Shown: positions 2,088 through 20,434 of the stretch, in pieces
Numbering within the stretch: the first letter of the stretch is position 1
Layout of the letters: each line of letters opens with the position of its first letter
Source: Candidatus Babelota bacterium
GTDB lineage: Bacteria; Babelota; Babeliae; Babelales; JACPOV01
Direction: 5' to 3'
DNA length: 64,000 bases
Assembly: GCA_022707425.1 (NCBI GenBank)
Contig: JAKJAQ010000008.1
Coordinates: 2,498 to 66,497, forward strand
Notes under the pieces: model-generated
What the model saw: only the letters and a program-made list of their open reading frames with translations
Databases searched by the model: none
Told to the model about the DNA's origin: nothing
Program-made: the position numbers and the translations under genes

Positions 2088-2465
2088 ATGACCATATTTG
2101 AATCAAAACGAGTAAGAGATATAAAAAAAGCACAAAAAGAGAAGCTCCTTTTCCGTGAGCTCTCTCAGCTTTTTTTGCAAGCAACTATAGATGATTCACG
2201 ATTGCGCGATGTTTATGTAAACCGCGTAGCGTTATCAGCTGATAAAAGTATTTGCTTTATTTATTTCTATTCTCCGCAAGGTCCTGCTTTTTTTGAAGAA
2301 AAGCTCGATATTTTAAAACTATACAAACCTTCGTTGCGCAAAGCAATTGCTGAAAAAATCGATGCACGCTACACTCCTGACCTTGTTTTTAAATATGATG
2401 AACAGTATGAAAAAATAGAAAAAATGGAAAATCTGTTTGAACAAATTAAAAAATCAGACAAATGA
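2088..2465 (+). CDS. rbfA: ribosome-binding factor A
   Basis: 125 aa. RbfA-like pattern: KRVRDIKK...LLFRELSQLF...DSRLRDVYVNRVALSADKSICFIYF...LRKAIAEKIDARYTPDLVFKYD. Confidence 0.85.
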   Translation: MTIFESKRVRDIKKAQKEKLLFRELSQLFLQATIDDSRLRDVYVNRVALSADKSICFIYFYSPQGPAFFEEKLDILKLYKPSLRKAIAEKIDARYTPDLVFKYDEQYEKIEKMENLFEQIKKSDK

Positions 2466-3229
2466 TATTTTTAAATCCAATCATTCTGATTCCATTGCTT
2501 TTATGCTGGGGCTCATTTTTAAATGTAGTTGCTTATCGATTGATTCATGACGGTTCAATTTTTTTTGGTCGTTCTCAATGCATTCATTGTCATCATCAAC
2601 TTGCCTGGTATCACTTAATACCTGTTCTTTCATATATTTTTTTGCAAAAAAAATGCGCTTTCTGCAAAAAAACAATATCGTGGCTTTATCCGTTCATTGA
2701 GCTATTCACCGCCTTGTGCCTTTATTTGATGTTCACGAATGTGCCCGCTCAATTTTGGTTTGGCTATTTTATTTTCTTCTCTGCTTTGATGGTAACCATT
2801 AGAACCGATCTTGAAACATTCATGATTTCTCGATTTGCTACTTTATTTTTATTACCCATTGCTTTTATTCTTTCATATTTGGAATACATCCCATTGAATC
2901 TTGAGCAAGTTATTTTAGGCTGCATAACTGGCTATTTTTTTTTATTAGCAATCTCATCACTCTATTATTGGTTGACCGGACGAGTTGGGATGGGCCAAGG
3001 GGATATTGAACTGCTTTCATTAATAGGTGCATTTTGTGGCATAGAAGGATGGTGGATAACTATTGTTATTGCTTCATCTCTCGGTTCATTATCAGGCATT
3101 ATTTTTTTATTTTGTTCCGGAAAAAAAACAACAAAAATACAAATTCCTTTTGGTCCATTTTTGGCATTCGGTGCCATGAGCTATGTTCTCTGGCAAACAC
3201 CATTAAAATCGTTGTTATTAGCTCTCTAA
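2462..3229 (+). CDS. pilD: prepilin peptidase (A24 family, type IV leader peptidase/N-methyltransferase-like)
   Basis: ATGA overlap with rbfA. N-terminal Cys motif CIHCHHQL...CAFCKK. Multi-pass membrane protein with GQGDIELLSLIG (the GxGDxKL-type aspartyl motif) and PFGPFLAFG near the C-terminus. Confidence 0.85.
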   Translation: MIFLNPIILIPLLLCWGSFLNVVAYRLIHDGSIFFGRSQCIHCHHQLAWYHLIPVLSYIFLQKKCAFCKKTISWLYPFIELFTALCLYLMFTNVPAQFWFGYFIFFSALMVTIRTDLETFMISRFATLFLLPIAFILSYLEYIPLNLEQVILGCITGYFFLLAISSLYYWLTGRVGMGQGDIELLSLIGAFCGIEGWWITIVIASSLGSLSGIIFLFCSGKKTTKIQIPFGPFLAFGAMSYVLWQTPLKSLLLAL

Positions 3230-3796
3230 AGATCGTGTTAAATAATCAGGTTGCTCTGGTAAATCGTAGCACAGCAACGAGCACGACAATTTTTTTTTGT
3301 TTTTCAATTTTTTCTTCCATGTTAAAACGTGCTGATTATCGTTAAGTAATGAATACGCATGTATTAAGTAGCCATACATTCGCCAATCAGCTGCATTAAC
3401 TGGTGAAGAAAAACTTTTCTCAATCAACGAAATTGTCAGTGTAGGATTATGCTGATTAAAAAGCAGATGAACTGCTCCTAAACGATAAGCACTCGTGAAA
3501 TGCGGGTCAAGTTGAGAAATCCAGTTAATCCACGAAATAACATTTTCTACGTTTGCCTTATCAATATTTTGCTGCAAAAAATAAAACCAATGCCAATCGG
3601 CTACCATCATTTTCCATGAACCAAAACATTCAGCATTATACGTTGGACACCGAGCAAAACCTACTTCATTTTCTGGTAACTGTTTCCTAATTAAAAAGAG
3701 TGTTATGGCACACAATACACAATACTGCAATACAACAATCAAACCCGTGATAACTAATTCTTTAAGCCAGATCGTCATTCGTAATTTGAATTTCAT
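3218..3796 (-). CDS. hypothetical membrane-anchored protein, helical-repeat (TPR-like) ectodomain
   Basis: One N-terminal TM (LVITGLIVVLQYCVLCAITLFLI) followed by a helical Trp/Tyr-rich region. Overlaps the 3' end of the pilin gene on the same strand, suggesting co-transcription. No family recognised. Confidence 0.5.
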   Translation of the reverse strand: MKFKLRMTIWLKELVITGLIVVLQYCVLCAITLFLIRKQLPENEVGFARCPTYNAECFGSWKMMVADWHWFYFLQQNIDKANVENVISWINWISQLDPHFTSAYRLGAVHLLFNQHNPTLTISLIEKSFSSPVNAADWRMYGYLIHAYSLLNDNQHVLTWKKKLKNKKKLSCSLLCYDLPEQPDYLTRSLES

Positions 3797-4247
3797 GATG
3801 TTGATTCACAGTTAATCGATCAAGAATACCGTCTCCATCAATATCACCGGCTGCGGCAGCAACAAAGGTAGTCGCATCGGCCTTAGTGTTTCCTAATTCG
3901 CTTGAGCCAGCACCTAACTTGCCAGTAAAACAGCATTGCCCTTCTTGTCCACTAAAGCCATATGTATAATAGAAGCGTTCACTAGAACCACCACCAGCAT
4001 ATCCTTCAGGTTGCCATCCGGCACCATCTTTGCCAGTAAGCATAGTAGTATATTTGCCGTGCTCTGCCCAGTATGCTTTTTCAGCTAAATAGAGGCTACC
4101 TAAATTCATGTACGCTTCAGTTCGTTTTGCCTTTGCTAAAAATCGAAAAAAACTCGGCATTGAAACCATAGATAGGAATGCAACAATTGCAACAACAATC
4201 ATTAATTCAATGAGGGTAAATCCCCCATTACGAGTAACCCACTTCAT
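3762..4247 (-). CDS. type IV pilin / pseudopilin with class III signal peptide
   Basis: N-terminus MKWVTRNGGFTLIELMIVVAIVAFL is the canonical G|FTLIE prepilin cleavage/methylation motif plus hydrophobic helix. The C-terminal region contains GDIDGDGILD. Confidence 0.9.
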   Translation of the reverse strand: MKWVTRNGGFTLIELMIVVAIVAFLSMVSMPSFFRFLAKAKRTEAYMNLGSLYLAEKAYWAEHGKYTTMLTGKDGAGWQPEGYAGGGSSERFYYTYGFSGQEGQCCFTGKLGAGSSELGNTKADATTFVAAAAGDIDGDGILDRLTVNQHHEIQITNDDLA

Positions 4248-4625
4248 ATAATTTTCCTCTCCCCCAAGCCCCTTAGTCTTAATGCTATCATACTGGAATT
4301 AGGCACAATCAAGTCAATAATCCATATTAAAAACTCTTAAAGCTAAAAACCACCAATTAAATTCAGGTGTAATAATACAATTTTAATATTATTGATGAGT
4401 TACTATAAAGAGTGCCAAAACAAAGTTTTTTAATCTTTTGTAAATAAAAAATCTGAATTTAAAGCTTAATTCATTGTTTGACATTTTTCCTGAATATTAT
4501 ATTCTAATATCTATATTAAGTTGGCATAATTTGCTGTTATATATTTTTTCTGGCCAACCAATTCTTTTTTTATATAAAAAAAGGCGATTAAAAAAATTGT
4601 AAACATCCCTGGAGTGGAGAAAAAA

Positions 4626-6047
4626 ATGATCAATCAAAAACAACCAGTTCCTCAAAAAGGCACAATGCCTGGTTCGACGAGAAATTATAATGAAGTGATT
4701 GAGTTTCTCGATAGCCACTGGTCAGCTACACGAACCGAGAAAAATATTGCTGCCGTAAAAGCGCTTGATAAAACTGTGGGGACTCCATCAAAATCGGTTT
4801 CAACCATACTTATTGGCGGTACCAATGGTAAAGGACTTACCATCAATTTTGCAGCTCATTTGCTCAAAGAAGAGGGGTTAAAAGTTGGTGCTTTTTACAG
4901 TCCACACCTTTTGACTTATAACGAGCGAATTTCTCTCAATAACGAAACGATTTCCAATAAAAATTTTACCGAACTTGCAAATGAAGTAATTAATGCTGCT
5001 GTTCTTAACGATATTAAAGCAGATTCTCTTGATATTTTGACTGTCATGGCATTGCTTTATTTTAAACAACAACAAGTTGATGTTGCATTATGTGAATTAA
5101 CACTTGGAAATGGCGTTGATCCTCTTTCAATCTGTTCTGCACAAATAGTTGCAATTACTCGCGTAACACAAAATAGCTCAACTATTGTTGATGAAGAAAT
5201 TCTTAAAAAACAAATTTTAGATCTGATGCTATTTACAAAACCTAACAGCTTTGTAGTTTCAGCAGACCAAAGCAAAGCTCATTTACAATTAATGCTCGAT
5301 GAAACAAAACGAATGGGTGCTCAATGGTCTATGCCAATTCGTAAACTTGCACAATTACGTTATCCATTCGAACAACTTTTTGGTAGATGCGCAGCGCTTG
5401 CTGAACGTATCAGTCAAATTTTTGTAGATAATTTTGCAAATAAAGATGCATTACACATTGAAAATAGCTTGCTTGCAAAACTTAAAGGGCAACGTGGTCG
5501 ACCAACTCTTGAAAAGAAACGTTTCGATGAAATGAATCCTAAAAAAACTATCGAGCAATTCTGGAAAGAAACTGTAACTTCATTGCCAGCTCACTTTGAA
5601 CTTCTCGATAAAGAAAAACCAACAATTTTACTCGATAATGCAAGCAACATAGATGCATTACAGAATCTATTACTTGGCATCCGCCTTCTTCATTATCAAC
5701 GTCCATTAAAAGGACTTACCTTTATCTTTGGCTGCGATAAAAACAAATTGCATGTTGATGAATTTTTACGCTTACTGCGTTATTTTTCAAAAAAGAATTC
5801 TGCCAATGTTATTTTCTGCCCAATTTCTACAACCCTTCCAGGTGTTAAATCTGAGTCATGGGATGTTGATCAAATTGCAATCGATGTGAAAAGTCTCAAA
5901 ATTAAGGCACGTTCTGCTAAGAATTTTGAAGAAGCATTTGATGCTGCAAAAAAATCTGTTGATGAACGCCACGGTTTGGTAGTTATCACTGGATCGCCAT
6001 CAATTGTTGCAGAATATTGGCACCACAAAGGCATTAAGAAAATCTAA
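4626..6047 (+). CDS. folC: folylpolyglutamate synthase / dihydrofolate synthase (Mur ligase family)
   Basis: P-loop ILIGGTNGKGLT, SPHLLTYNERI, and LLDNASNIDAL (DxAHN-like). Track ORF starts at GTG 4614. ATG 4626 lies behind GGAGTGGAG and is the more likely start. Confidence 0.75.
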   Translation: MINQKQPVPQKGTMPGSTRNYNEVIEFLDSHWSATRTEKNIAAVKALDKTVGTPSKSVSTILIGGTNGKGLTINFAAHLLKEEGLKVGAFYSPHLLTYNERISLNNETISNKNFTELANEVINAAVLNDIKADSLDILTVMALLYFKQQQVDVALCELTLGNGVDPLSICSAQIVAITRVTQNSSTIVDEEILKKQILDLMLFTKPNSFVVSADQSKAHLQLMLDETKRMGAQWSMPIRKLAQLRYPFEQLFGRCAALAERISQIFVDNFANKDALHIENSLLAKLKGQRGRPTLEKKRFDEMNPKKTIEQFWKETVTSLPAHFELLDKEKPTILLDNASNIDALQNLLLGIRLLHYQRPLKGLTFIFGCDKNKLHVDEFLRLLRYFSKKNSANVIFCPISTTLPGVKSESWDVDQIAIDVKSLKIKARSAKNFEEAFDAAKKSVDERHGLVVITGSPSIVAEYWHHKGIKKI

Positions 6048-6050
6048 ACC

Positions 6051-6320
6051 ATGAATTTCCTCAACTGCGTTTTACCAATCGCTGTTGGGTGTATAAGTGG
6101 AGCAATCTATGGGCTTTTGTTCTTGCGAACAAAAGCCCTTTTCTTTAACAATCATTCTCTTGCACCGATTATCACCTTTCTACGATTACTTACGTTGTCT
6201 CTTTTTTTTGTTTATGTATTGCGTACCTCGCTTGTTCATTCTATACTCGTATTAATAACCTTTTTTACTGCATTTTGGTTGATCATTTTCAAAAGGGCCA
6301 CGCAGCATGGAAGCTTTTGA
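6051..6320 (+). CDS. small hydrophobic protein, ATP synthase protein I (AtpI/AtpR)-like by position
   Basis: 89 aa with 3 predicted TM helices, immediately upstream of and overlapping atpB. The call rests on position and topology only. Confidence 0.45.
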   Translation: MNFLNCVLPIAVGCISGAIYGLLFLRTKALFFNNHSLAPIITFLRLLTLSLFFVYVLRTSLVHSILVLITFFTAFWLIIFKRATQHGSF

Positions 6321-7047
6321 AGGAGTTAAGTCGTCACTCTGGAACCCATTTGGTTGGTTTGGTATAGATAATAGTCTGCTCAAAATTAACGGTTCAACCA
6401 TCATTAACACATGGATTGTTCTGTTTTTGCTTTCTGCATTTTTACTTTTTTGCCGTCTTCTTTTTTTTAAACAGCCGATAGTTCGCTATCTTGTTACTCA
6501 AGGTGTTACCAATTTTATGGAGATGGTGGTTCATAACATGGGCACATTCATCTATGCACATTTTTTAATGGTTATTTCTCTTTTTTTATTCATTTTAGCT
6601 TGCAATTGGATAATAATTTTACCATGGACAAAAGAACCAACATCAGACATTAATACTACAATTGCACTCGCACTCATAGCATTTTTTTATAAAGAAGTTG
6701 CATCCATCAAAGCTCGCGGTTGGTGGGGATATTTTAAAGAATTTTTAGAACCATTTTTTATTATGTTTCCCGTTAATGTTATTGGCCACTTTTCCAAAAT
6801 AATTTCACTCGCATTTCGTCTTTTTGGTAATATTTTTGGTAGTTCTATCATTATGGATTTGTATACTCACGTTATTTCTATGGTGTGGGTTGCTGAGTTG
6901 GTTGGACTATTTTCAGGACTCAATTTTCTTATTGTTATTTTCTTTGGTCTTTTTGAAGGACTTATTCAAGCATTTGTATTTGCTATGCTCACGCTAACCT
7001 ATATTAGTCTTGCAATACAAAAAGATGTTCATGGTGAAGGAATTTAA
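6307..7047 (+). CDS. atpB: F-type ATP synthase subunit a
   Basis: Multi-pass membrane protein with the subunit-a signature ISLAFRLFGNIFGSSIIM (essential Arg in RLFGN) and the C-terminal helix GLIQAFVFAMLTLTYISLA. Confidence 0.9.
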   Translation: MEAFEGVKSSLWNPFGWFGIDNSLLKINGSTIINTWIVLFLLSAFLLFCRLLFFKQPIVRYLVTQGVTNFMEMVVHNMGTFIYAHFLMVISLFLFILACNWIIILPWTKEPTSDINTTIALALIAFFYKEVASIKARGWWGYFKEFLEPFFIMFPVNVIGHFSKIISLAFRLFGNIFGSSIIMDLYTHVISMVWVAELVGLFSGLNFLIVIFFGLFEGLIQAFVFAMLTLTYISLAIQKDVHGEGI

Positions 7048-7048
7048 C

Positions 7049-7996
7049 ATGATCGACCCAGCACTTCTGCATTATATGAGTATCGCAATCGTTATTGTAC
7101 TCACAACAGTTGGTGCAACAGTTGGCAGTATACGTGCAAGTAAATCTGCTCTTGATGCAATTAATATTGCCCCCGCAGCAAAAAATGAAATAACGCGCGC
7201 TTCCGTAATTGGTCTTGCATTAATTGAAACGGCTCCGATACTTGGTCTTATTTTAATTTTGATGCTTTTGCTCGTTCGCTCCACAACACCAACGCTTCCC
7301 GTTGCCTTAGCAGAATTGGGTATTGCTCTTGGCATGGGCATTACCGGATTTATAGGTGGCATCGTTTCTGCCTATCCAACCCAAGAAACGTGCTTTGCAA
7401 TAGCTCGTCAACCTTTTTTTAGTCAAAATTTGTTAAATTTAATGGTAATCACACAAACAATCATTCAAACACCACTTATTTTTGTGTTTCTTGTTTCTCT
7501 TTTTATTTTTTTTCAATTGAATCTTCTTGTTTCGATTAAAGCTGGACTCATATTGATGGCATCAGGGTTGTGTATGGGAATTGGATCAGTTGGTCCGTCA
7601 ATTGGTCTTGGTAGATTCGCTCGTACTGCATGCAAAAGTGTCGGCATAAATCGCAAAGCATACAGCTACATTCTTCCTTTCACACTCATGAGCGGCGCAT
7701 TTATCGAAACACCACTCATTTTTGCATTTCTTGTTTCTCTTATCTTACTTGGCAATATTTTAAATACCGATCCATTAATAGGAATTCGATCAATTTGCGC
7801 TGCATTATGCATTGGTTTTGGTACATTTGCACCTGGTATCAATTCAAGTAAAACTGCAAGTTCTGCATGCCAGCAAATGGCATTAAATCCATCCGCTTAT
7901 TCTTCATTATCGCAAATAAGTATGTTTAGTCAGGGAATTATTGATGCTGCAGCAATTTATGCATTGCTCACTGCATTGTTTATTGTGTTGCTCAAA
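7049..7996 (+). repeat. four tandem c-subunit hairpin modules (7049-7282, 7283-7528, 7529-7768, 7769-7996)
   Basis: Protein-level internal repeat. Modules 2 and 3 share QTPLIFVFLVSL / ETPLIFAFLVSL. The modules are diverged at DNA level, so this is not a recent duplication or an assembly artefact of identical repeats. Confidence 0.8.
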
Positions 7997-7999
7997 TAA
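7049..7999 (+). CDS. atpE: ATP synthase subunit c, four fused hairpins (8 TM) in one polypeptide
   Basis: ATG 7049 is 1 nt after the atpB stop, behind GGTGAAGGA. Four consecutive c-like helical hairpins, each with a Gly-rich helix 1 and a polar loop (IAPAAKNE / IARQPFFSQ / INRKAYS / LNPSAYS). The helix-2 key residues are E (7226-7228), Q (7466-7468), E (7706-7708) and D (7943-7945). There is no stop codon between the modules. Confidence 0.85.
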   Translation: MIDPALLHYMSIAIVIVLTTVGATVGSIRASKSALDAINIAPAAKNEITRASVIGLALIETAPILGLILILMLLLVRSTTPTLPVALAELGIALGMGITGFIGGIVSAYPTQETCFAIARQPFFSQNLLNLMVITQTIIQTPLIFVFLVSLFIFFQLNLLVSIKAGLILMASGLCMGIGSVGPSIGLGRFARTACKSVGINRKAYSYILPFTLMSGAFIETPLIFAFLVSLILLGNILNTDPLIGIRSICAALCIGFGTFAPGINSSKTASSACQQMALNPSAYSSLSQISMFSQGIIDAAAIYALLTALFIVLLK

Positions 8000-8039
8000 T
8001 TTAGGAGAGTAAAAAACCAGACACACTCGATACGAAAGA

Positions 8040-9185
8040 ATGTGGATGAAGAAAAAGGAGTTGCATGTTCTGTACATTATCACCAAGCTCGAGCTTGGTG
8101 GCGCTCAAAAAGTTTGCCTCAGTTTGTTCAATGGCTTATCTTCACAAGGACATCGAAGTTTTCTCATCTCAGGCACAGATGGAACTTTAACTAACCAAGT
8201 TTCAGAAGAAAAAAATATTATTTTACTTTCTTCTTTCGTAAGAGAAGTGGGTTGGCAATCATTTATCACTGAATGGCGCGCGTTTAAAGAGCTTGTACGA
8301 AAAATAAAACAGTTAAAAAAAGAATTTCCTGATCTTATTGTTCATACACACAGCACGAAAGCCGGCATTCTCGGTCGATGGGCAGCATGGTGGTGTGGCA
8401 TTGAAAAACGTATTCATACGGTGCACGGATTTGCATTTCATGAATATCAAACATGGTTGAAGTGGGTGTGTATTTATGCAGTTGAATTCATAACAAGTTT
8501 TATTACTACCCATTATGTTTGCGTTTCATCACATGATGTTAAAACCGGTATTCGATTATTTCCTCGTTTTACACAAAAACATTCGATCATTCGTGCTGCA
8601 GTTGATACAAAACAATTTTATCTTCCCGCTCAAAAAAATAAATTCGAACGATCAACAAACACATTTGTTTTCGGCACCATTTCTTGTTTTAAAGAACAAA
8701 AAAATCTTTTTGATTTATTACACGCATTTAAAGATGCATATGCAAAAAACAACACAATTAGACTCGAAATTATCGGTGATGGTATTTTGCGTCCCGCACT
8801 CGAAGAATGGATCAAGCACCATGAATTAACACAAGTTATTACGCTGCATGGCTGGCAATCTGAAGTTGCACCAATCATGATTGATTGGCATGCATTCGTG
8901 CTCAGTTCACTTTGGGAAGGATTGCCATGTGCAGTTGTCGAAGCGCGATTGCTCAAACTACCAGTTCTATCGTACAACACCGGTGGTATTCATGATATCA
9001 TTTTTAGTGGTGAAAACGGTTTTTTGTATAAACAAAAACAGTGGCATCAATTAGCGCATGGTATGCTCACTCTTGCTCAAAATAATCAGCTTTATAAAAA
9101 ATTAGCTTCTTATCACGATGATTTACGTTCATTTGAACAATCGTATATGATTCAGCAACATCTTACCCTTTACCGCGATTTTTAA
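8040..9185 (+). CDS. glycosyltransferase, GT4 (GT-B fold) family
   Basis: N-terminal LHVLYIITKLELGGAQKV. C-terminal EX7E-type region SSLWEGLPCAVVEARLLKLPVLSYNTGGIHDIIFSGENGFL. Confidence 0.85.
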   Translation: MWMKKKELHVLYIITKLELGGAQKVCLSLFNGLSSQGHRSFLISGTDGTLTNQVSEEKNIILLSSFVREVGWQSFITEWRAFKELVRKIKQLKKEFPDLIVHTHSTKAGILGRWAAWWCGIEKRIHTVHGFAFHEYQTWLKWVCIYAVEFITSFITTHYVCVSSHDVKTGIRLFPRFTQKHSIIRAAVDTKQFYLPAQKNKFERSTNTFVFGTISCFKEQKNLFDLLHAFKDAYAKNNTIRLEIIGDGILRPALEEWIKHHELTQVITLHGWQSEVAPIMIDWHAFVLSSLWEGLPCAVVEARLLKLPVLSYNTGGIHDIIFSGENGFLYKQKQWHQLAHGMLTLAQNNQLYKKLASYHDDLRSFEQSYMIQQHLTLYRDF

Positions 9186-9252: not shown

Positions 9253-10164
9253 ATGCACTTCAAAACAGTACTTGAATCAATCGGAAACACGCCGCTCGTC
9301 AAAGTTAATTTTGGCACACCGCCGTGTGTTCTTGCAAAACTTGATTATTTAAACCCCGGCGGCAGCGTGAAAGATCGCTCTGCGTTGTATATGATTGAAG
9401 AAGCTGAGCGTGAAGGATTATTAAAGCCAGGCGGCACTTTGATTGATGCATCATCAGGTAATCAAGGAATCGCAACTGCAATGATTGGTGCACTGAAAAA
9501 TTATAAAGTAATTATTACCGTGTCAGAAAAAATCAGCAAAGAAAAACTGCAAACTATCAAAGCCTATGGAGCTGAGGTTGTCATGTGTCCTTCAACTTCA
9601 TATTTAGAAGATCCAAATAGTTATCACAGCAGAGCGGTAGAAATTCACAAAAAAACACCAAATTCATTCATGCCAAATCAATATTTTAATGTGGCCAATT
9701 CGCGAGCACATTATTTTTCACTCGGTCCTGAAATATGGAACCAAACAAATGGCAAAGTTACACACCTGCTTGGTGCAGTTGGAACAGGTGGTCATGTAAG
9801 TGGCCTTGGCAGATATTTAAAAGAAAAAAATCCAAACATTAAAGTTGTTGCACTCGATTCTATCAATTCCTGGCGCGCTACAAAAGGAAACCCAAAGCCG
9901 TACAAAATTGAAGGAATCGGTGTTGACTTTGCATCACCGGTACTTGATTATTCAGTTATTGATGAATTTATTGGTGTCACTGATGAAGATGGCTTGGGAA
10001 TGCTAAAAATAATGGCGCAAAAACATGGTCTATTAATTGGACCAAGTAGTGGTGCTGTTGCTTGGGCAGGAAGAGAATACAGCAAAAAATTGTCTCCTGA
10101 TGCAGTGGTTGTCATGCTTTTTGGCGATTCTGGCCGCGCATATTTAACTAAAGATTTTTATTAA
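9253..10164 (+). CDS. cysK: PLP-dependent cysteine synthase / cystathionine beta-synthase family protein
   Basis: IGNTPLVKV, LNPGGSVKDRSA (PLP lysine), SSGNQGIATA, GTGGHVSG. Substrate specificity cannot be resolved from sequence alone. Confidence 0.75.
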   Translation: MHFKTVLESIGNTPLVKVNFGTPPCVLAKLDYLNPGGSVKDRSALYMIEEAEREGLLKPGGTLIDASSGNQGIATAMIGALKNYKVIITVSEKISKEKLQTIKAYGAEVVMCPSTSYLEDPNSYHSRAVEIHKKTPNSFMPNQYFNVANSRAHYFSLGPEIWNQTNGKVTHLLGAVGTGGHVSGLGRYLKEKNPNIKVVALDSINSWRATKGNPKPYKIEGIGVDFASPVLDYSVIDEFIGVTDEDGLGMLKIMAQKHGLLIGPSSGAVAWAGREYSKKLSPDAVVVMLFGDSGRAYLTKDFY

Positions 10165-17196: not shown

Positions 17197-17942
17197 ATAA
17201 TGCATTCACTAATCATTCAACACATTTAATTGTCGGTCCACACGATGAAACACGTGCATACATTATAAAATCTTTGCAACAACTCTGGTGCGCTCACAAT
17301 GGTTGCAGTACATGCGGAGTGTGCGCGTCGGTTGTAGCGCAACAACATCATGCACTTTTTTGGTTAACACCAAATCCTCAATATACATTAGAGCAAATTG
17401 ATTTACTCATCGAAAAAACTGCATTTACGCTTGAACCATATAACTATTTTTTTTGCATAATTGAAAAAGCAGATTTTTTAACACTTGCAAGTGCAAATCG
17501 TCTTCTTAAAACACTAGAAGAGCCTCCGCGTGGTTATCATTTTATTTTGCAAGCACCTCGCATCGAGTCAATTTTACCTACCATTGCTTCTCGGTGCTTA
17601 ATTACTCCCATTTACTCTACAAAATCAGTTCTTGTTAGCCATCCCATTGCAGTGGTTTTTATTAACTTACAATTTGCACATCCTGATATTTTTTTAAAAC
17701 TCATCGATGATCATGAATTAACCGACCGAGAAACAACTGAACTCATCGATCAACTATTACATTATTGGCTCGTACAAACGATACATGATCAAGGTGAAAA
17801 TTGCGCAAAAACCAAATCTCATATTATGAGTCAATTATTGAAAGAAGCGTTAAACAATCCACCAATGCCAGGCAGCAGTAAATTATTTTGGAAAAACTTA
17901 TTCTTAAAAACACAACAGCATTTATCTCATGCACGAAGTTGA
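17193..17942 (+). CDS. holB: DNA polymerase III delta-prime subunit (short form)
   Basis: ATGA overlap with tmk, the usual tmk-holB synteny. Cys cluster CSTCGVCASV. LLKTLEEPP and SRC motifs. Confidence 0.7.
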   Translation: MNNAFTNHSTHLIVGPHDETRAYIIKSLQQLWCAHNGCSTCGVCASVVAQQHHALFWLTPNPQYTLEQIDLLIEKTAFTLEPYNYFFCIIEKADFLTLASANRLLKTLEEPPRGYHFILQAPRIESILPTIASRCLITPIYSTKSVLVSHPIAVVFINLQFAHPDIFLKLIDDHELTDRETTELIDQLLHYWLVQTIHDQGENCAKTKSHIMSQLLKEALNNPPMPGSSKLFWKNLFLKTQQHLSHARS

Positions 17943-18472
17943 TAGGTAGCAATTGTTGTATATTCTGGACCATTTGCTGATAACACAGAAGATCTCAATG
18001 TAAATTCGGTTACCGCAAAGCATTCGTTGAGCGATCCACTGTTGCGCACGAACGTTGTCAATCCATGAAAATCGGTAATCTTTTTTATGCGAGCAATGGT
18101 TACATGCCCCGCATAAGGACGATCATCAGTTTTCACAAAATCACGCAATACATCGTTCATTGTTTGAGCAAATAAAGACAATTGTAAAGACAGTGCTTCA
18201 ACCCACAACAAATGTGCATTTTCTGTCGCCGGCTTTAACGTAAGTGAAGAGACACAAATTTCAAATGGCGCAAACACAATAGAACTAAGAATTGTTTTTA
18301 TCTGCAACAATTGATCATTGCCTACATTACCAATAAATGCCAATGTTAGGTGAATATTTTCTGGCGTTACAAAACGTCCTTCAAAAAAATGATACTGCTT
18401 CATTTCTTTTTCAAGTGATTCAAAGCGTGTTCGAACTGTTTTTGGTAACTCAATACTGACAAATAATCTCAT
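17927..18472 (-). CDS. thpR: RNA 2',3'-cyclic phosphodiesterase (2H phosphoesterase, ThpR/LigT)
   Basis: Two HxTx motifs, HLTLAFIG and HVTIARI. About 180 aa. Confidence 0.85.
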   Translation of the reverse strand: MRLFVSIELPKTVRTRFESLEKEMKQYHFFEGRFVTPENIHLTLAFIGNVGNDQLLQIKTILSSIVFAPFEICVSSLTLKPATENAHLLWVEALSLQLSLFAQTMNDVLRDFVKTDDRPYAGHVTIARIKKITDFHGLTTFVRNSGSLNECFAVTEFTLRSSVLSANGPEYTTIATYQLRA

Positions 18473-18511
18473 GAGAGCTTTCTCACTTGTCTACACACAT
18501 CATTCATATAT

Positions 18512-19966
18512 TCAGCCACCTTTAATAACCGCGATCGGTTCTAATCGCGCAACTTTGCGCGCCAAATGTGCATCATGCACAACTTGCACTACTTCTTCAA
18601 CATCTTTATATGCAGTCGGTGCTTCTTCTGCCAACCCTGCATCCGAATCACAACGCACAACAATGCCCTTTTTTTCTAACTGACCGCGCAATGCTGAACC
18701 ACGCACCGTTTTTTTTGCTTGAACACGCGACATTCTGCGACCCGCTCCGTGGCAACAAGTGCCAAATGAAAGATCCATGCCTTTTTTAGTCCCAACCAAC
18801 ACATATGAAGCAGTACCCATTGTTCCCGGAATTAATACAGGCTGACCAATGGCGTGATATTTCGCCGGGAGTTCAGGTCGTCCTGGACCAAAAGAGCGTG
18901 TCGCACCTTTTCGATGCACTAACAATTCCAGCTCGCTGCCATTTATACTATGTTTTTCTTTTTTTCCAATATTGTGTGAAACATCATAAATCAAATTAAG
19001 CTGCGCACCATTTCCTAATATTTTTTGCCAACTTTCACGTACCCAATGACCAATCAAGTGACGATTTGCCCACGCAAAATTTGAGGCAGCTTGCATTGCT
19101 GCAAAATAATTTTGACCTTCTTGAGAATTAAACGGTGCACACACTAATTCACGATCGGGCAATTCAATATTCCATTTTTTTAACAATGGCATGAAATCGC
19201 GAACATAATCGGTACATGTTTGGTGGCCAAGTCCACGAGACCCACAATGGATCATCACCGTTACTTGGTTCATGCGCAGTCCCATGGTAGATGCAACTTC
19301 TTGGTCAAAAATTTCGGCAACTTTTTGCACTTCCAAAAAATGATTTCCTGAACCGAGTGTACCAAGTTGATCTGTGCCCCGATTTTTTGCTTTCTCTGAA
19401 ACACGGTCCGGATTTGCACCACTCATGCATCCATGCTCTTCGCAAAATTCAATATCAGTTCGCTCACCATATCCTTTTTTAAGCATATACGGTGCGCCTT
19501 CTGCTAATACATGATCAAGCTCCCTTTCCTTCAGCACCAATTTGCCACCACGCCCTACTCCAGAAGGAACCGCATGAAAAAGAGCCGTTGCAAGAGCATC
19601 AAGACTTTTTTTTATTTCCTCAAATTCATTATTTGCTGCAAGTAATCGCACACCGCAATTAATATCATACCCAATTCCCCCGGGAGAAATCGCGCCACCG
19701 TGGTCGATTGCAGTAGCTGCAACACCACCAATTGGAAATCCATACCCTTCATGAATATCGGGCATAGCAAACGCATAACCAACTATTCCAGGTAAGGTTG
19801 TGATATTCACCAATTGCCACAATGAACGATCTATACCAATTTCTTTCAACATTTTTTCAGTTGCAAAAACTCGTGCGGGCACACGCATATCAGAACGAAA
19901 GGAACGTTCAATTTCATATAAATAGGGTTCAATTTTTAACATTTGAGATCGATCAATCGTTTGCAT
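18512..19966 (-). CDS. rtcB: RNA-splicing ligase RtcB
   Basis: PDIHEGYGFPIGG, GGIGYDINCGVR, GSGNHFLE, IHCGSRGLGHQ, CHGAGR. Confidence 0.95.
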   Translation of the reverse strand: MQTIDRSQMLKIEPYLYEIERSFRSDMRVPARVFATEKMLKEIGIDRSLWQLVNITTLPGIVGYAFAMPDIHEGYGFPIGGVAATAIDHGGAISPGGIGYDINCGVRLLAANNEFEEIKKSLDALATALFHAVPSGVGRGGKLVLKERELDHVLAEGAPYMLKKGYGERTDIEFCEEHGCMSGANPDRVSEKAKNRGTDQLGTLGSGNHFLEVQKVAEIFDQEVASTMGLRMNQVTVMIHCGSRGLGHQTCTDYVRDFMPLLKKWNIELPDRELVCAPFNSQEGQNYFAAMQAASNFAWANRHLIGHWVRESWQKILGNGAQLNLIYDVSHNIGKKEKHSINGSELELLVHRKGATRSFGPGRPELPAKYHAIGQPVLIPGTMGTASYVLVGTKKGMDLSFGTCCHGAGRRMSRVQAKKTVRGSALRGQLEKKGIVVRCDSDAGLAEEAPTAYKDVEEVVQVVHDAHLARKVARLEPIAVIKGG

Positions 19967-19984
19967 GTGTTCCTTTTTTTTTAT

Positions 19985-20434
19985 CTAAATATCAAAAACG
20001 ATTTCTACTGTCCATAATCCATTGTGTTGCTGTATTTCGCATCCGTGATAAGTAACTGCTTTTATTTCAACAACATCAAAATGTTCGATAGCAATGCCAT
20101 GCAAAGTTGCATCAACATGTGTTGCAGAAAGCTGATGAATGGTAACATCTAAATATGCTTCATTATATATATCTGATAAATACAGTGCATGAGACAAGAA
20201 ATCAATAAGCAATTCATCTTTACTATGAGATTGAATTGAAACAGGTCGAGAAATTGGTAATTGTGCACAAATAAGTTGGTTGTTAAGTCGTTCACAACCA
20301 CGAGCTTGTGGTCCGATACTTTGAAACATGCCAATCAGTGCATGACGAAAGAGATCTTCGATTGTTTTACCGCACACGCGAATTTTTAAATCGGCCGTGT
20401 GCGGCAAAATTTCATAATCGGCGCTACACTTCAT
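19985..20434 (-). CDS. archease (RtcB activator)
   Basis: YEILPHTADLKIRVCGKTIEDLFRHALIGMF at the N-terminus and IKAVTYHGCEI...WTVEIVFDI at the C-terminus. Confidence 0.85.
   Translation of the reverse strand: MKCSADYEILPHTADLKIRVCGKTIEDLFRHALIGMFQSIGPQARGCERLNNQLICAQLPISRPVSIQSHSKDELLIDFLSHALYLSDIYNEAYLDVTIHQLSATHVDATLHGIAIEHFDVVEIKAVTYHGCEIQQHNGLWTVEIVFDI

Follow-up and report, generated by a model that had tools for sequence, protein, structure and literature searches.

A conserved a–c4 locus and scattered atp genes point to a dispersed F-type ATPase in Dependentiae

Can a locus that encodes subunits a and c of a rotary ATPase, with no stalk or F1 genes in sight, belong to a working enzyme, and if so, where is the rest of that enzyme? 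The question is raised by a 64,000-nucleotide stretch of a metagenome-assembled genome (MAG) of Candidatus Babelota bacterium (contig JAKJAQ010000008.1, positions 2,498–66,497; hereafter the window). Positions 6051–7999 of its forward strand carry a small hydrophobic open reading frame (ORF), atpB for Fo subunit a, and a gene for a fused rotor subunit c that we call c4, as it contains four c-type hairpins. Contig MWBD01000012.1 of GCA_002068925.1 carries an identical atpB, and an identical c4 is recorded under the name Candidatus Dependentiae bacterium ADurb.Bin331, which is taken to be the organism here. The Dependentiae, also called TM6 or Babelota, are a phylum of intracellular parasites. 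An earlier note on this DNA, made from the sequence alone, described an Fo-only cluster and offered three explanations: subunits encoded elsewhere, a non-canonical set of partners, or the remnant of a decaying synthase. In our judgment, positions 6051–7999 are probably the intact membrane sector of a dispersed, complete F1Fo-type rotary ATPase, which most likely works as an ATP-driven pump.

Distribution of atp genes in the window and in Dependentiae

The earlier note was right that subunits b, delta, alpha, gamma, beta and epsilon are all missing from the 64 kb. Pfam scans of window ORFs gave no match to the ATP-synt_ab, gamma, OSCP, DE or ATP-synt_B families; these scans covered the ORFs of 120 aa or more located from 17.2 kb to the end of the window as well as several earlier ones, with positions 1–17 kb covered by precomputed hits on the identical public contig. 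For subunit b in particular, PF00430 had no match among the scanned ORFs of at least 120 aa, and the unannotated ORFs lacked a b-type architecture on inspection. Searches of the whole window by tblastn and phmmer with the E. coli beta, gamma, delta, epsilon and b subunits also returned nothing. Run against 72 ordinary metagenome loci that contain gamma, these queries recovered beta at 56 loci, delta at 43, b at 41 and epsilon at 27, and they also pick up gamma in Dependentiae loci, so they are valid as controls.

The absence is a property of the phylum rather than of one contig. A scan of one genome per GTDB species produced 80 Dependentiae/Babeliales c4 loci, among them those of the complete genomes AP025250.1 and CP074345.1 (Vermiphilus pyriformis) and of several OY chromosomes. 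With five further contigs, the order folC, small ORF, atpB, c4, (GT4), PALP is common to ~85 Dependentiae species; the cluster is seen in every one of those examined, and none has b, delta or F1 genes within 10 kb of the a–c4 pair. No match to alpha, beta, gamma, delta, epsilon or b was found in 1.66 Mb of sequence comprising the window and 87 c4 loci, and the precomputed Pfam lists of three further c4 contigs contain no such subunit gene. The E. coli beta subunit found nothing by tblastn in the window and the 87 loci, no homologue search aimed at Dependentiae beta having been made. A scan of viral contigs for c4 yielded no Dependentiae contigs. Across the window and the 87 loci, atpB and c4 stand side by side in 88 of 88 sequences, and a member of the small-ORF family, as collected with jackhmmer, lies directly upstream of atpB in 84. 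The flanking genes are less constant, with folC upstream of the atp genes in 83 of the 88, PALP present in 72 and GT4 in 60, mostly right after c4; GT4 is absent downstream of c4 in about one-third of species, and in several lineages PALP follows c4 directly.

More divergent c4 lineages retain the same order, often with sua5/yrdC upstream on the other strand. At three loci, this gene lies just upstream of the folC/AtpI-like/atpB block and points away from it (L006, 6542–7153; L088, 8208–8825; L090, 6695–7324; all minus strand). In Firmicutes and Actinobacteria, sua5 is also found near the head of atp operons. The shared position suggests that a–c4 has kept its place at the head of the ancestral operon, beside folC and, in relatives, beside sua5. 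Some Dependentiae loci appear in public records under titles such as ‘uncultured Pseudomonadota bacterium’, ‘Alteromonas naphthalenivorans’, ‘Proteobacteria bacterium’ and ‘Novosphingobium sp.’ (for example L043 (JBLICC010000005.1), L073, many CAZ* and CAY* records, and P0273); these are probably taxonomic mislabels of MAGs.

Where, then, are the remaining genes? The Babela massiliensis genome lists one gene each for COG0055 AtpD, COG0056 AtpA, COG0224 AtpG, COG0355 AtpC, COG0712 AtpH, COG0711 AtpF and COG0356 AtpB (Additional file 11 in PMC4378268). Its c4 gene, AtpB (297,912–298,697) and an 84-aa ORF lie together (Additional file 9), and its AtpG (Babela_gene_468; 491,091–491,933) is solitary, between a PIN/YacP gene and a CAAX protease gene (PMC4378268), which puts atpG 193 kb from a–c4. 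A search with the Babela gamma subunit returned 665 relatives, several of them named ‘F0F1 ATP synthase subunit gamma [Candidatus Dependentiae bacterium]’, and a metagenome scan with a gamma profile gave, among the matches listed, mostly ordinary bacteria and ~8 Dependentiae-like loci. On one long contig (contig_7006, 1,194,016 bp; MFD02416.bin.1.157), both parts can be placed: a c4 locus (L071) at 230–251 kb and a gamma locus (P0368) at 955–976 kb, ~725 kb apart. The atpG gene of this contig (L091, 10001–10825) is also solitary: tsaE and a yacP/PIN gene lie on one flank, as is the Dependentiae pattern, and a murA-like EPSP_synthase gene lies on the other. None of nine Dependentiae-like gamma loci has alpha or beta within 10 kb of gamma; phmmer detected gamma and nothing else in eight of them, and nothing in the 2.5-kb locus L098.

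Because the a–c4 locus lacks F1 and b genes and gamma stands alone, the atp genes of Dependentiae occupy at least three loci; this is dispersal, not an Fo-only machine. Moreover, since gamma is solitary at all nine of its loci, the operon is dispersed rather than split in two. Split atp operons are familiar from alphaproteobacteria and from cyanobacteria and chloroplasts, in which the genes of one enzyme occupy more than one locus. In such cases there are two operons, and b or b' remains in the Fo locus. In Dependentiae, by contrast, the Fo locus holds only the AtpI-like ORF, a and c, gamma is solitary and at least three loci are involved. The explanation that the remaining subunits lie elsewhere therefore holds for the phylum, by the Babela table and contig_7006, and for this MAG itself we infer that F1 genes are present. 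The conventional atpFHAGDC locus that the earlier note thought might be found elsewhere is not what relatives display; in these, gamma is on its own (9/9 loci).

Subunit a and the four-hairpin rotor

Both membrane subunits have the features of active parts. The atpB gene (6307–7047, forward strand) encodes a 246-aa subunit a, the component that provides the stator and ion half-channels, and matches PF00119 with 123.2 bits (cut-off 33.9; E-value 1.8e-35) over profile positions 3–217 of 217. Aligned to E. coli subunit a, Arg171 (codon 6817–6819, in the motif RLFGN) corresponds to R210, and the counterparts of S206, R210, N214 and Q252 do not vary among the 80 Dependentiae sequences; the intact essential arginine pointed out in the earlier note is shared by all of these. 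Ratios of nonsynonymous to synonymous substitution rates (dN/dS), calculated by the Nei–Gojobori method for the window against one relative (L008, 89–93% identical), are 0.058 for atpB and 0.074 for c4, compared with 0.059 for folC, 0.045 for PALP and 0.25 for the small ORF. The atp reading frames are intact in all species.

The c4 gene (7049–7999, forward strand) encodes a 316-aa protein with eight transmembrane (TM) helices. Its start is ATG 7049, as in the public gene call and the homologue alignment; a TTG at 7010, given by a mechanical ORF list, was rejected, as homologues and the public call begin at the ATG. The earlier note called the gene a fused atpE; the fusion is real, and can now be specified as one of four hairpins. 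Four separate stretches match PF00137 (77.3 bits; cut-off 24), the hairpins score best against F-type c models, and they are mutually homologous, with 28–39% identity between their consensus sequences. An AlphaFold2 model (predicted local distance difference test score 96.2, predicted template-modelling score 0.92) contains eight long TM helices, some kinked, arranged as four hairpins. The best sequence match, the c1 subunit of Acetobacterium woodii (4BEM_J; 1.8e-9), is also the best fold match (target-normalised TM-score 0.77; root-mean-square deviation 1.7 Å), followed by 2BL2_A (Enterococcus hirae NtpK) and by 6WLW and 6O7U (eukaryotic V-ATPase c). None of the solved chains covers more than half of c4. 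In an exhaustive profile search, the family comprised 232 clusters at 50% identity (E ≤ 1e-30), nearly all of them 310–325 aa long.

The key residues of hairpins 1 to 4 are E60, Q140, E220 and D299. An ion-binding carboxylate is thus present in hairpins 1, 3 and 4, and hairpin 2 has Gln140 instead and is a silent hairpin of the kind also found in V-type c subunits. In 117 c4 homologues, the key position is Glu in 116 for hairpin 1, Gln in 115 for hairpin 2, Glu in 117 for hairpin 3, and Asp in 80 or Glu in 33 for hairpin 4. Conservation of the glutamine in 115 of 117 proteins marks it as a fixed design feature rather than drift. The ligand positions in helix 1 differ between species in the c4 alignment, and on this account motifs give no call between Na+ and H+.

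A second conserved element lies in the cytoplasmic loop of hairpin 2, where R120-Q121-P122 (codons 7406–7414, forward strand) corresponds to the RQP loop in subunit c of E. coli. In the E. coli enzyme, this loop contacts the gamma/epsilon foot of F1. Among the 117 aligned c4 proteins, the arginine is present in 114 and the glutamine and proline in all 117, and this near-invariance argues for an F1 partner.

How new is such a rotor? The c subunits named in a recent paper have 1, 2, 3 or 13 hairpins, and no four-hairpin form is among them (PMC9171764), and we found no description of a four-hairpin F-type c in open-access text. A conserved four-hairpin rotor with an invariant silent site is the unusual and new part of the cluster. 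The closest known counterpart, A. woodii c1, shares with c4 the fusion of F-type hairpins and a Gln in place of one carboxylate. It has two hairpins and one site, however, and occurs as one copy beside nine single-hairpin c subunits (PMC9171764), whereas c4 has four hairpins and three sites; in the alignment, the order of Glu and Gln is reversed. The A. woodii ring is accordingly a hybrid. By contrast, no c gene other than c4 was found at the Dependentiae locus, and c4 would thus make up the whole ring. In A. woodii, the atp genes form one operon. V-ATPase proteolipids (E. hirae NtpK; eukaryotic c, c' and c'') resemble c4 in having duplicated hairpins and fewer carboxylates than hairpins, and they serve ATP-driven pumps, but each of these proteins has two hairpins, and the enzymes that contain them are of the V/A type and use another kind of stator subunit, whereas the stator here is a plain F-type PF00119 subunit a.

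Archaeal multi-hairpin c subunits (2, 3 or 13 hairpins) also illustrate multiplication of hairpins, sometimes with loss of binding sites (PMC9171764), but are parts of archaeal A-type enzymes. The c4 profile search also turned up four other multi-hairpin c proteins, P0190 (406 aa), P0257 (411 aa), P0198 (968 aa) and P0254 (1139 aa). Two of the four have five hairpins, of which one carries Glu and four carry Gln, in (A/S)xQTP-type motifs; another has ~12 Trp-rich hairpins with Glu in all of them, and P0254 resembles the archaeal long form, judged on its AEAL-IYGL motif.

The small membrane protein, its RNA hairpin and the flanking genes

The 89-aa ORF (6051–6320, forward strand) overlaps the start of atpB by 14 nt and belongs to a family of ~85–105-aa proteins with three hydrophobic segments, in which R45 and F71 are invariant and G13, G17, Y20 and W76 nearly so. 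Could it be the missing subunit b, as the earlier note allowed? Its architecture is wrong for that role: three TM segments in ~90 residues, hydrophobic throughout, and no long charged helix; we rejected the assignment. The label ‘AtpI-like’ fares better without being secured. It gains from the position of the gene and from weak matches of 11 of 46 relatives to PF03899 ATP-synt_I at E ≤ 1 (best 7.2e-4); searches of Pfam and NCBIfam with the window protein gave no match. Judged by where it lies and by this weak homology, the protein is probably a divergent c-ring assembly factor of the AtpI/UncI type. In A. woodii, whose enzyme contains a fused c subunit, functional production of that enzyme in E. 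coli depends on its own AtpI, according to the title of reference 55 in PMC9171764.

A small membrane protein directly upstream of atpB is also found in N-ATPases (atpDCQRBEFAG), where it is AtpR. PF12966 AtpR is weakly matched by 2 of 46 small-ORF relatives, fewer than match ATP-synt_I. Beta and epsilon genes are absent upstream of a–c4, and no atpQ was found. The N-ATPase models score far below their cut-offs (TIGR03306, 85 versus 302.1; TIGR03322, 73.3 versus 130.85) and no F1 genes are adjacent, and we rejected this classification.

Within the small ORF lies an RNA hairpin (6111–6138, forward strand) with a 12-bp stem and a 4-nt loop, followed by TTTTCTTT. It sits ~60 nt into the gene, over the codons for ‘GLxF...(K/R)(K/R)xAL’, and has an energy of about −22 kcal/mol. 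Hairpins with 12–17-bp stems and a subsequent T-run stand at the same position in L003, L008, L009, L017 and ~35 other loci. An uninterrupted stem of at least 12 bp occurs at this place in 39 of 79 species, compared with 15 of 1580 shuffled sequences (0.9%), and RNAalifold, run on 41 sequences preselected for long stems, gave 14 base pairs with compensatory changes in 11. The element looks like an intrinsic terminator or attenuator, and it may act as an attenuator between folC and atpB–c4.

The gene order described in the earlier note is correct, with six forward-strand genes densely spaced at successive gaps of 3, −14, 1, 40 and 67 nt. The folC-like gene (4614–6047), whose stop codon is 3 nt ahead of the 89-aa ORF, matches Mur_ligase_C and also TIGR01499 folC (2.1e-42), the latter under that model's cut-off. 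It is a conserved upstream neighbour, possibly co-transcribed, and no part of the ATPase; the best promoter-like site of the region lies at 4478–4505. Downstream of c4 are a GT4 glycosyltransferase gene (8040–9185, forward strand; Glycos_transf_1, 6e-27) and a PALP gene for a cysteine synthase/CBS-like enzyme dependent on pyridoxal phosphate (9253–10164, forward strand; PF00291, 1e-70), which scores under the cut-offs of all cysK/CBS models; both are outside the ATPase. We rejected them as functional partners, both being housekeeping enzymes and GT4 being missing in many lineages, and we find no support for the non-canonical partner set that had been proposed.

Two other neighbourhoods of the window are worth recording. 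Upstream of folC, positions 2462–4247 hold a prepilin peptidase (A24) gene beside two small opposite-strand genes; one of these (3762–4247) has an N-terminal methylation motif and encodes a type IV pilin-like protein, and the prepilin peptidase/pilin-like neighbourhood is kept in relatives. Farther along, at 17927–20434 on the minus strand, a LigT-like 2',5'-RNA ligase/phosphoesterase, RtcB and archease are adjacent and constitute a module for RNA repair and ligation, here in the reduced genome of a parasite.

Proposed operation of the enzyme, rival readings and implications

How might such an enzyme work? A few copies of c4 would form the rotor ring, making the number of hairpins a multiple of four. 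Three of every four hairpins would bind an ion, with hairpin 2 silent, as the ring turned against Arg171 of subunit a and its RQP loop docked onto the gamma/epsilon foot of F1. The enzyme would run backwards, hydrolysing imported ATP and pumping H+ (or Na+) outward to energise the membrane, and the silent site would lower the number of ions moved per ATP, which is the logic of a V-type pump. Reverse operation is most likely because the genomes of this group are reported to lack a respiratory chain and to import ATP by ATP/ADP translocases. In published Dependentiae genomes, there is no electron transport chain, ATP/ADP translocases and a H+-pyrophosphatase are encoded, the ATP synthase is thought to maintain the gradient or to work in reverse, and the authors propose ATP import with ATP- or PPi-driven energisation of the membrane (PMC4776705, PMC6561590); these papers give no detail on ATP synthase subunits. 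Ring stoichiometry, ion type and direction of operation are properties that we infer.

Several points weigh against this account. The F1, b and delta genes of ADurb.Bin331 were not retrieved, and its gamma was not among the best 120 matches listed in either a single-sequence or a profile search. Alpha and beta in Dependentiae are known from one published COG table. The AtpI assignment is weak, and hhalign gave a probability of 0.1 for the small-ORF profile against E. coli AtpI. Finally, loss of a site from a fused c subunit is not in itself a bar to ATP synthesis (PMC9171764), and the proposed pumping direction therefore rests on the physiology of other Dependentiae.

The strongest competitor is a true synthase that runs forward on an ion gradient drawn from, or shared with, a host compartment, its c4 ring tuning the ion-to-ATP ratio for a low driving force. 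An enzyme with a V-type c can still make ATP at physiological membrane potentials (PMC9171764), and ultra-small host-dependent prokaryotes have been suggested to use ATP synthase after ‘scavenging protons’ from their hosts (PMC9938205). We nevertheless judge forward operation improbable here. At a given gradient, fewer sites per turn hampers synthesis by the usual coupling-ratio argument, and a lack of a respiratory chain together with ATP/ADP translocases and a H+-pyrophosphatase is read by the authors of the published Dependentiae genomes as a sign of ATP import and of membrane energisation by ATP or PPi (PMC4776705, PMC6561590). A quite different proposal is that a and c4 work without F1, alone or with partners of another kind, for example as a gated ion channel or as the membrane rotor of another machine. 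The lack of b, delta and F1 genes within 10 kb in ~85 species would be expected on that proposal, and no F1 gene of this MAG was retrieved. Yet relatives that share the a–c4 locus encode gamma and, according to the COG table, every other subunit. The RQP loop expected to dock F1 hardly varies, none of the neighbouring genes keeps a constant place that would mark it as a partner, and an Fo without F1 is a passive leak; we regard an F1-less module as very unlikely.

Least credible of all, and close to negligible in our estimate, is that the locus is what remains of a decaying ATP synthase in a host-dependent organism. A reduced parasite genome, a fragmented operon and the loss of one of four ion sites could each be taken as signs of decay. 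However, dN/dS values of 0.06–0.07 equal those of the housekeeping neighbours, frames are intact in all species and key residues invariant, the cluster is present in all ~85 species, and the hairpin-2 glutamine is itself conserved (115/117). On these sequence measures, decay of the a–c4 genes appears excluded. The membrane sector of a dispersed F1Fo-type ATPase, working as a pump, thus remains the reading that we prefer. A fuller version can be drawn, in which Dependentiae took a separate path in converting an F-type enzyme into a V-type-like pump. Its homo-oligomeric ring would be built from c4 protomers with their fixed silent site and assembled by an AtpI-like factor specific to the lineage; the RNA hairpin would tune expression, and the eight genes would be spread over at least three loci. 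We consider this version plausible, and hold it tentatively. If it is true, a ring of two c4 copies would have 8 hairpins and move 6 ions per turn (2 per ATP), one of three copies 12 hairpins and 9 ions (3 per ATP), and one of four copies 16 hairpins and 12 ions (4 per ATP); the ring would be the first natural F-type ring made only of multi-hairpin protomers.

More broadly, the ‘Fo-only’ appearance of this locus denotes neither an orphan Fo nor a dying enzyme; phylum-wide scattering of atp genes accounts for it, and it is unremarkable in itself. Annotation pipelines that rely on operons, and scores of pathway completeness, should expect scattered atp genes. The features worth following up are the c4 rotor with its fixed silent hairpin and the terminator-like RNA hairpin inside the AtpI-like gene. 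That hundreds of Dependentiae lineages keep c4, and with it an invariant silent site, amounts to a natural experiment on how F-type enzymes set their ion-to-ATP ratio. The rotor parallels the change by which synthases are believed to have become V-type pumps, and fits organisms that import ATP and spend it on energising their membranes. As protist hosts support the growth of Babela, Vermiphilus and Chromulinavorax, the stoichiometry of the ring and the direction of pumping are measurable.

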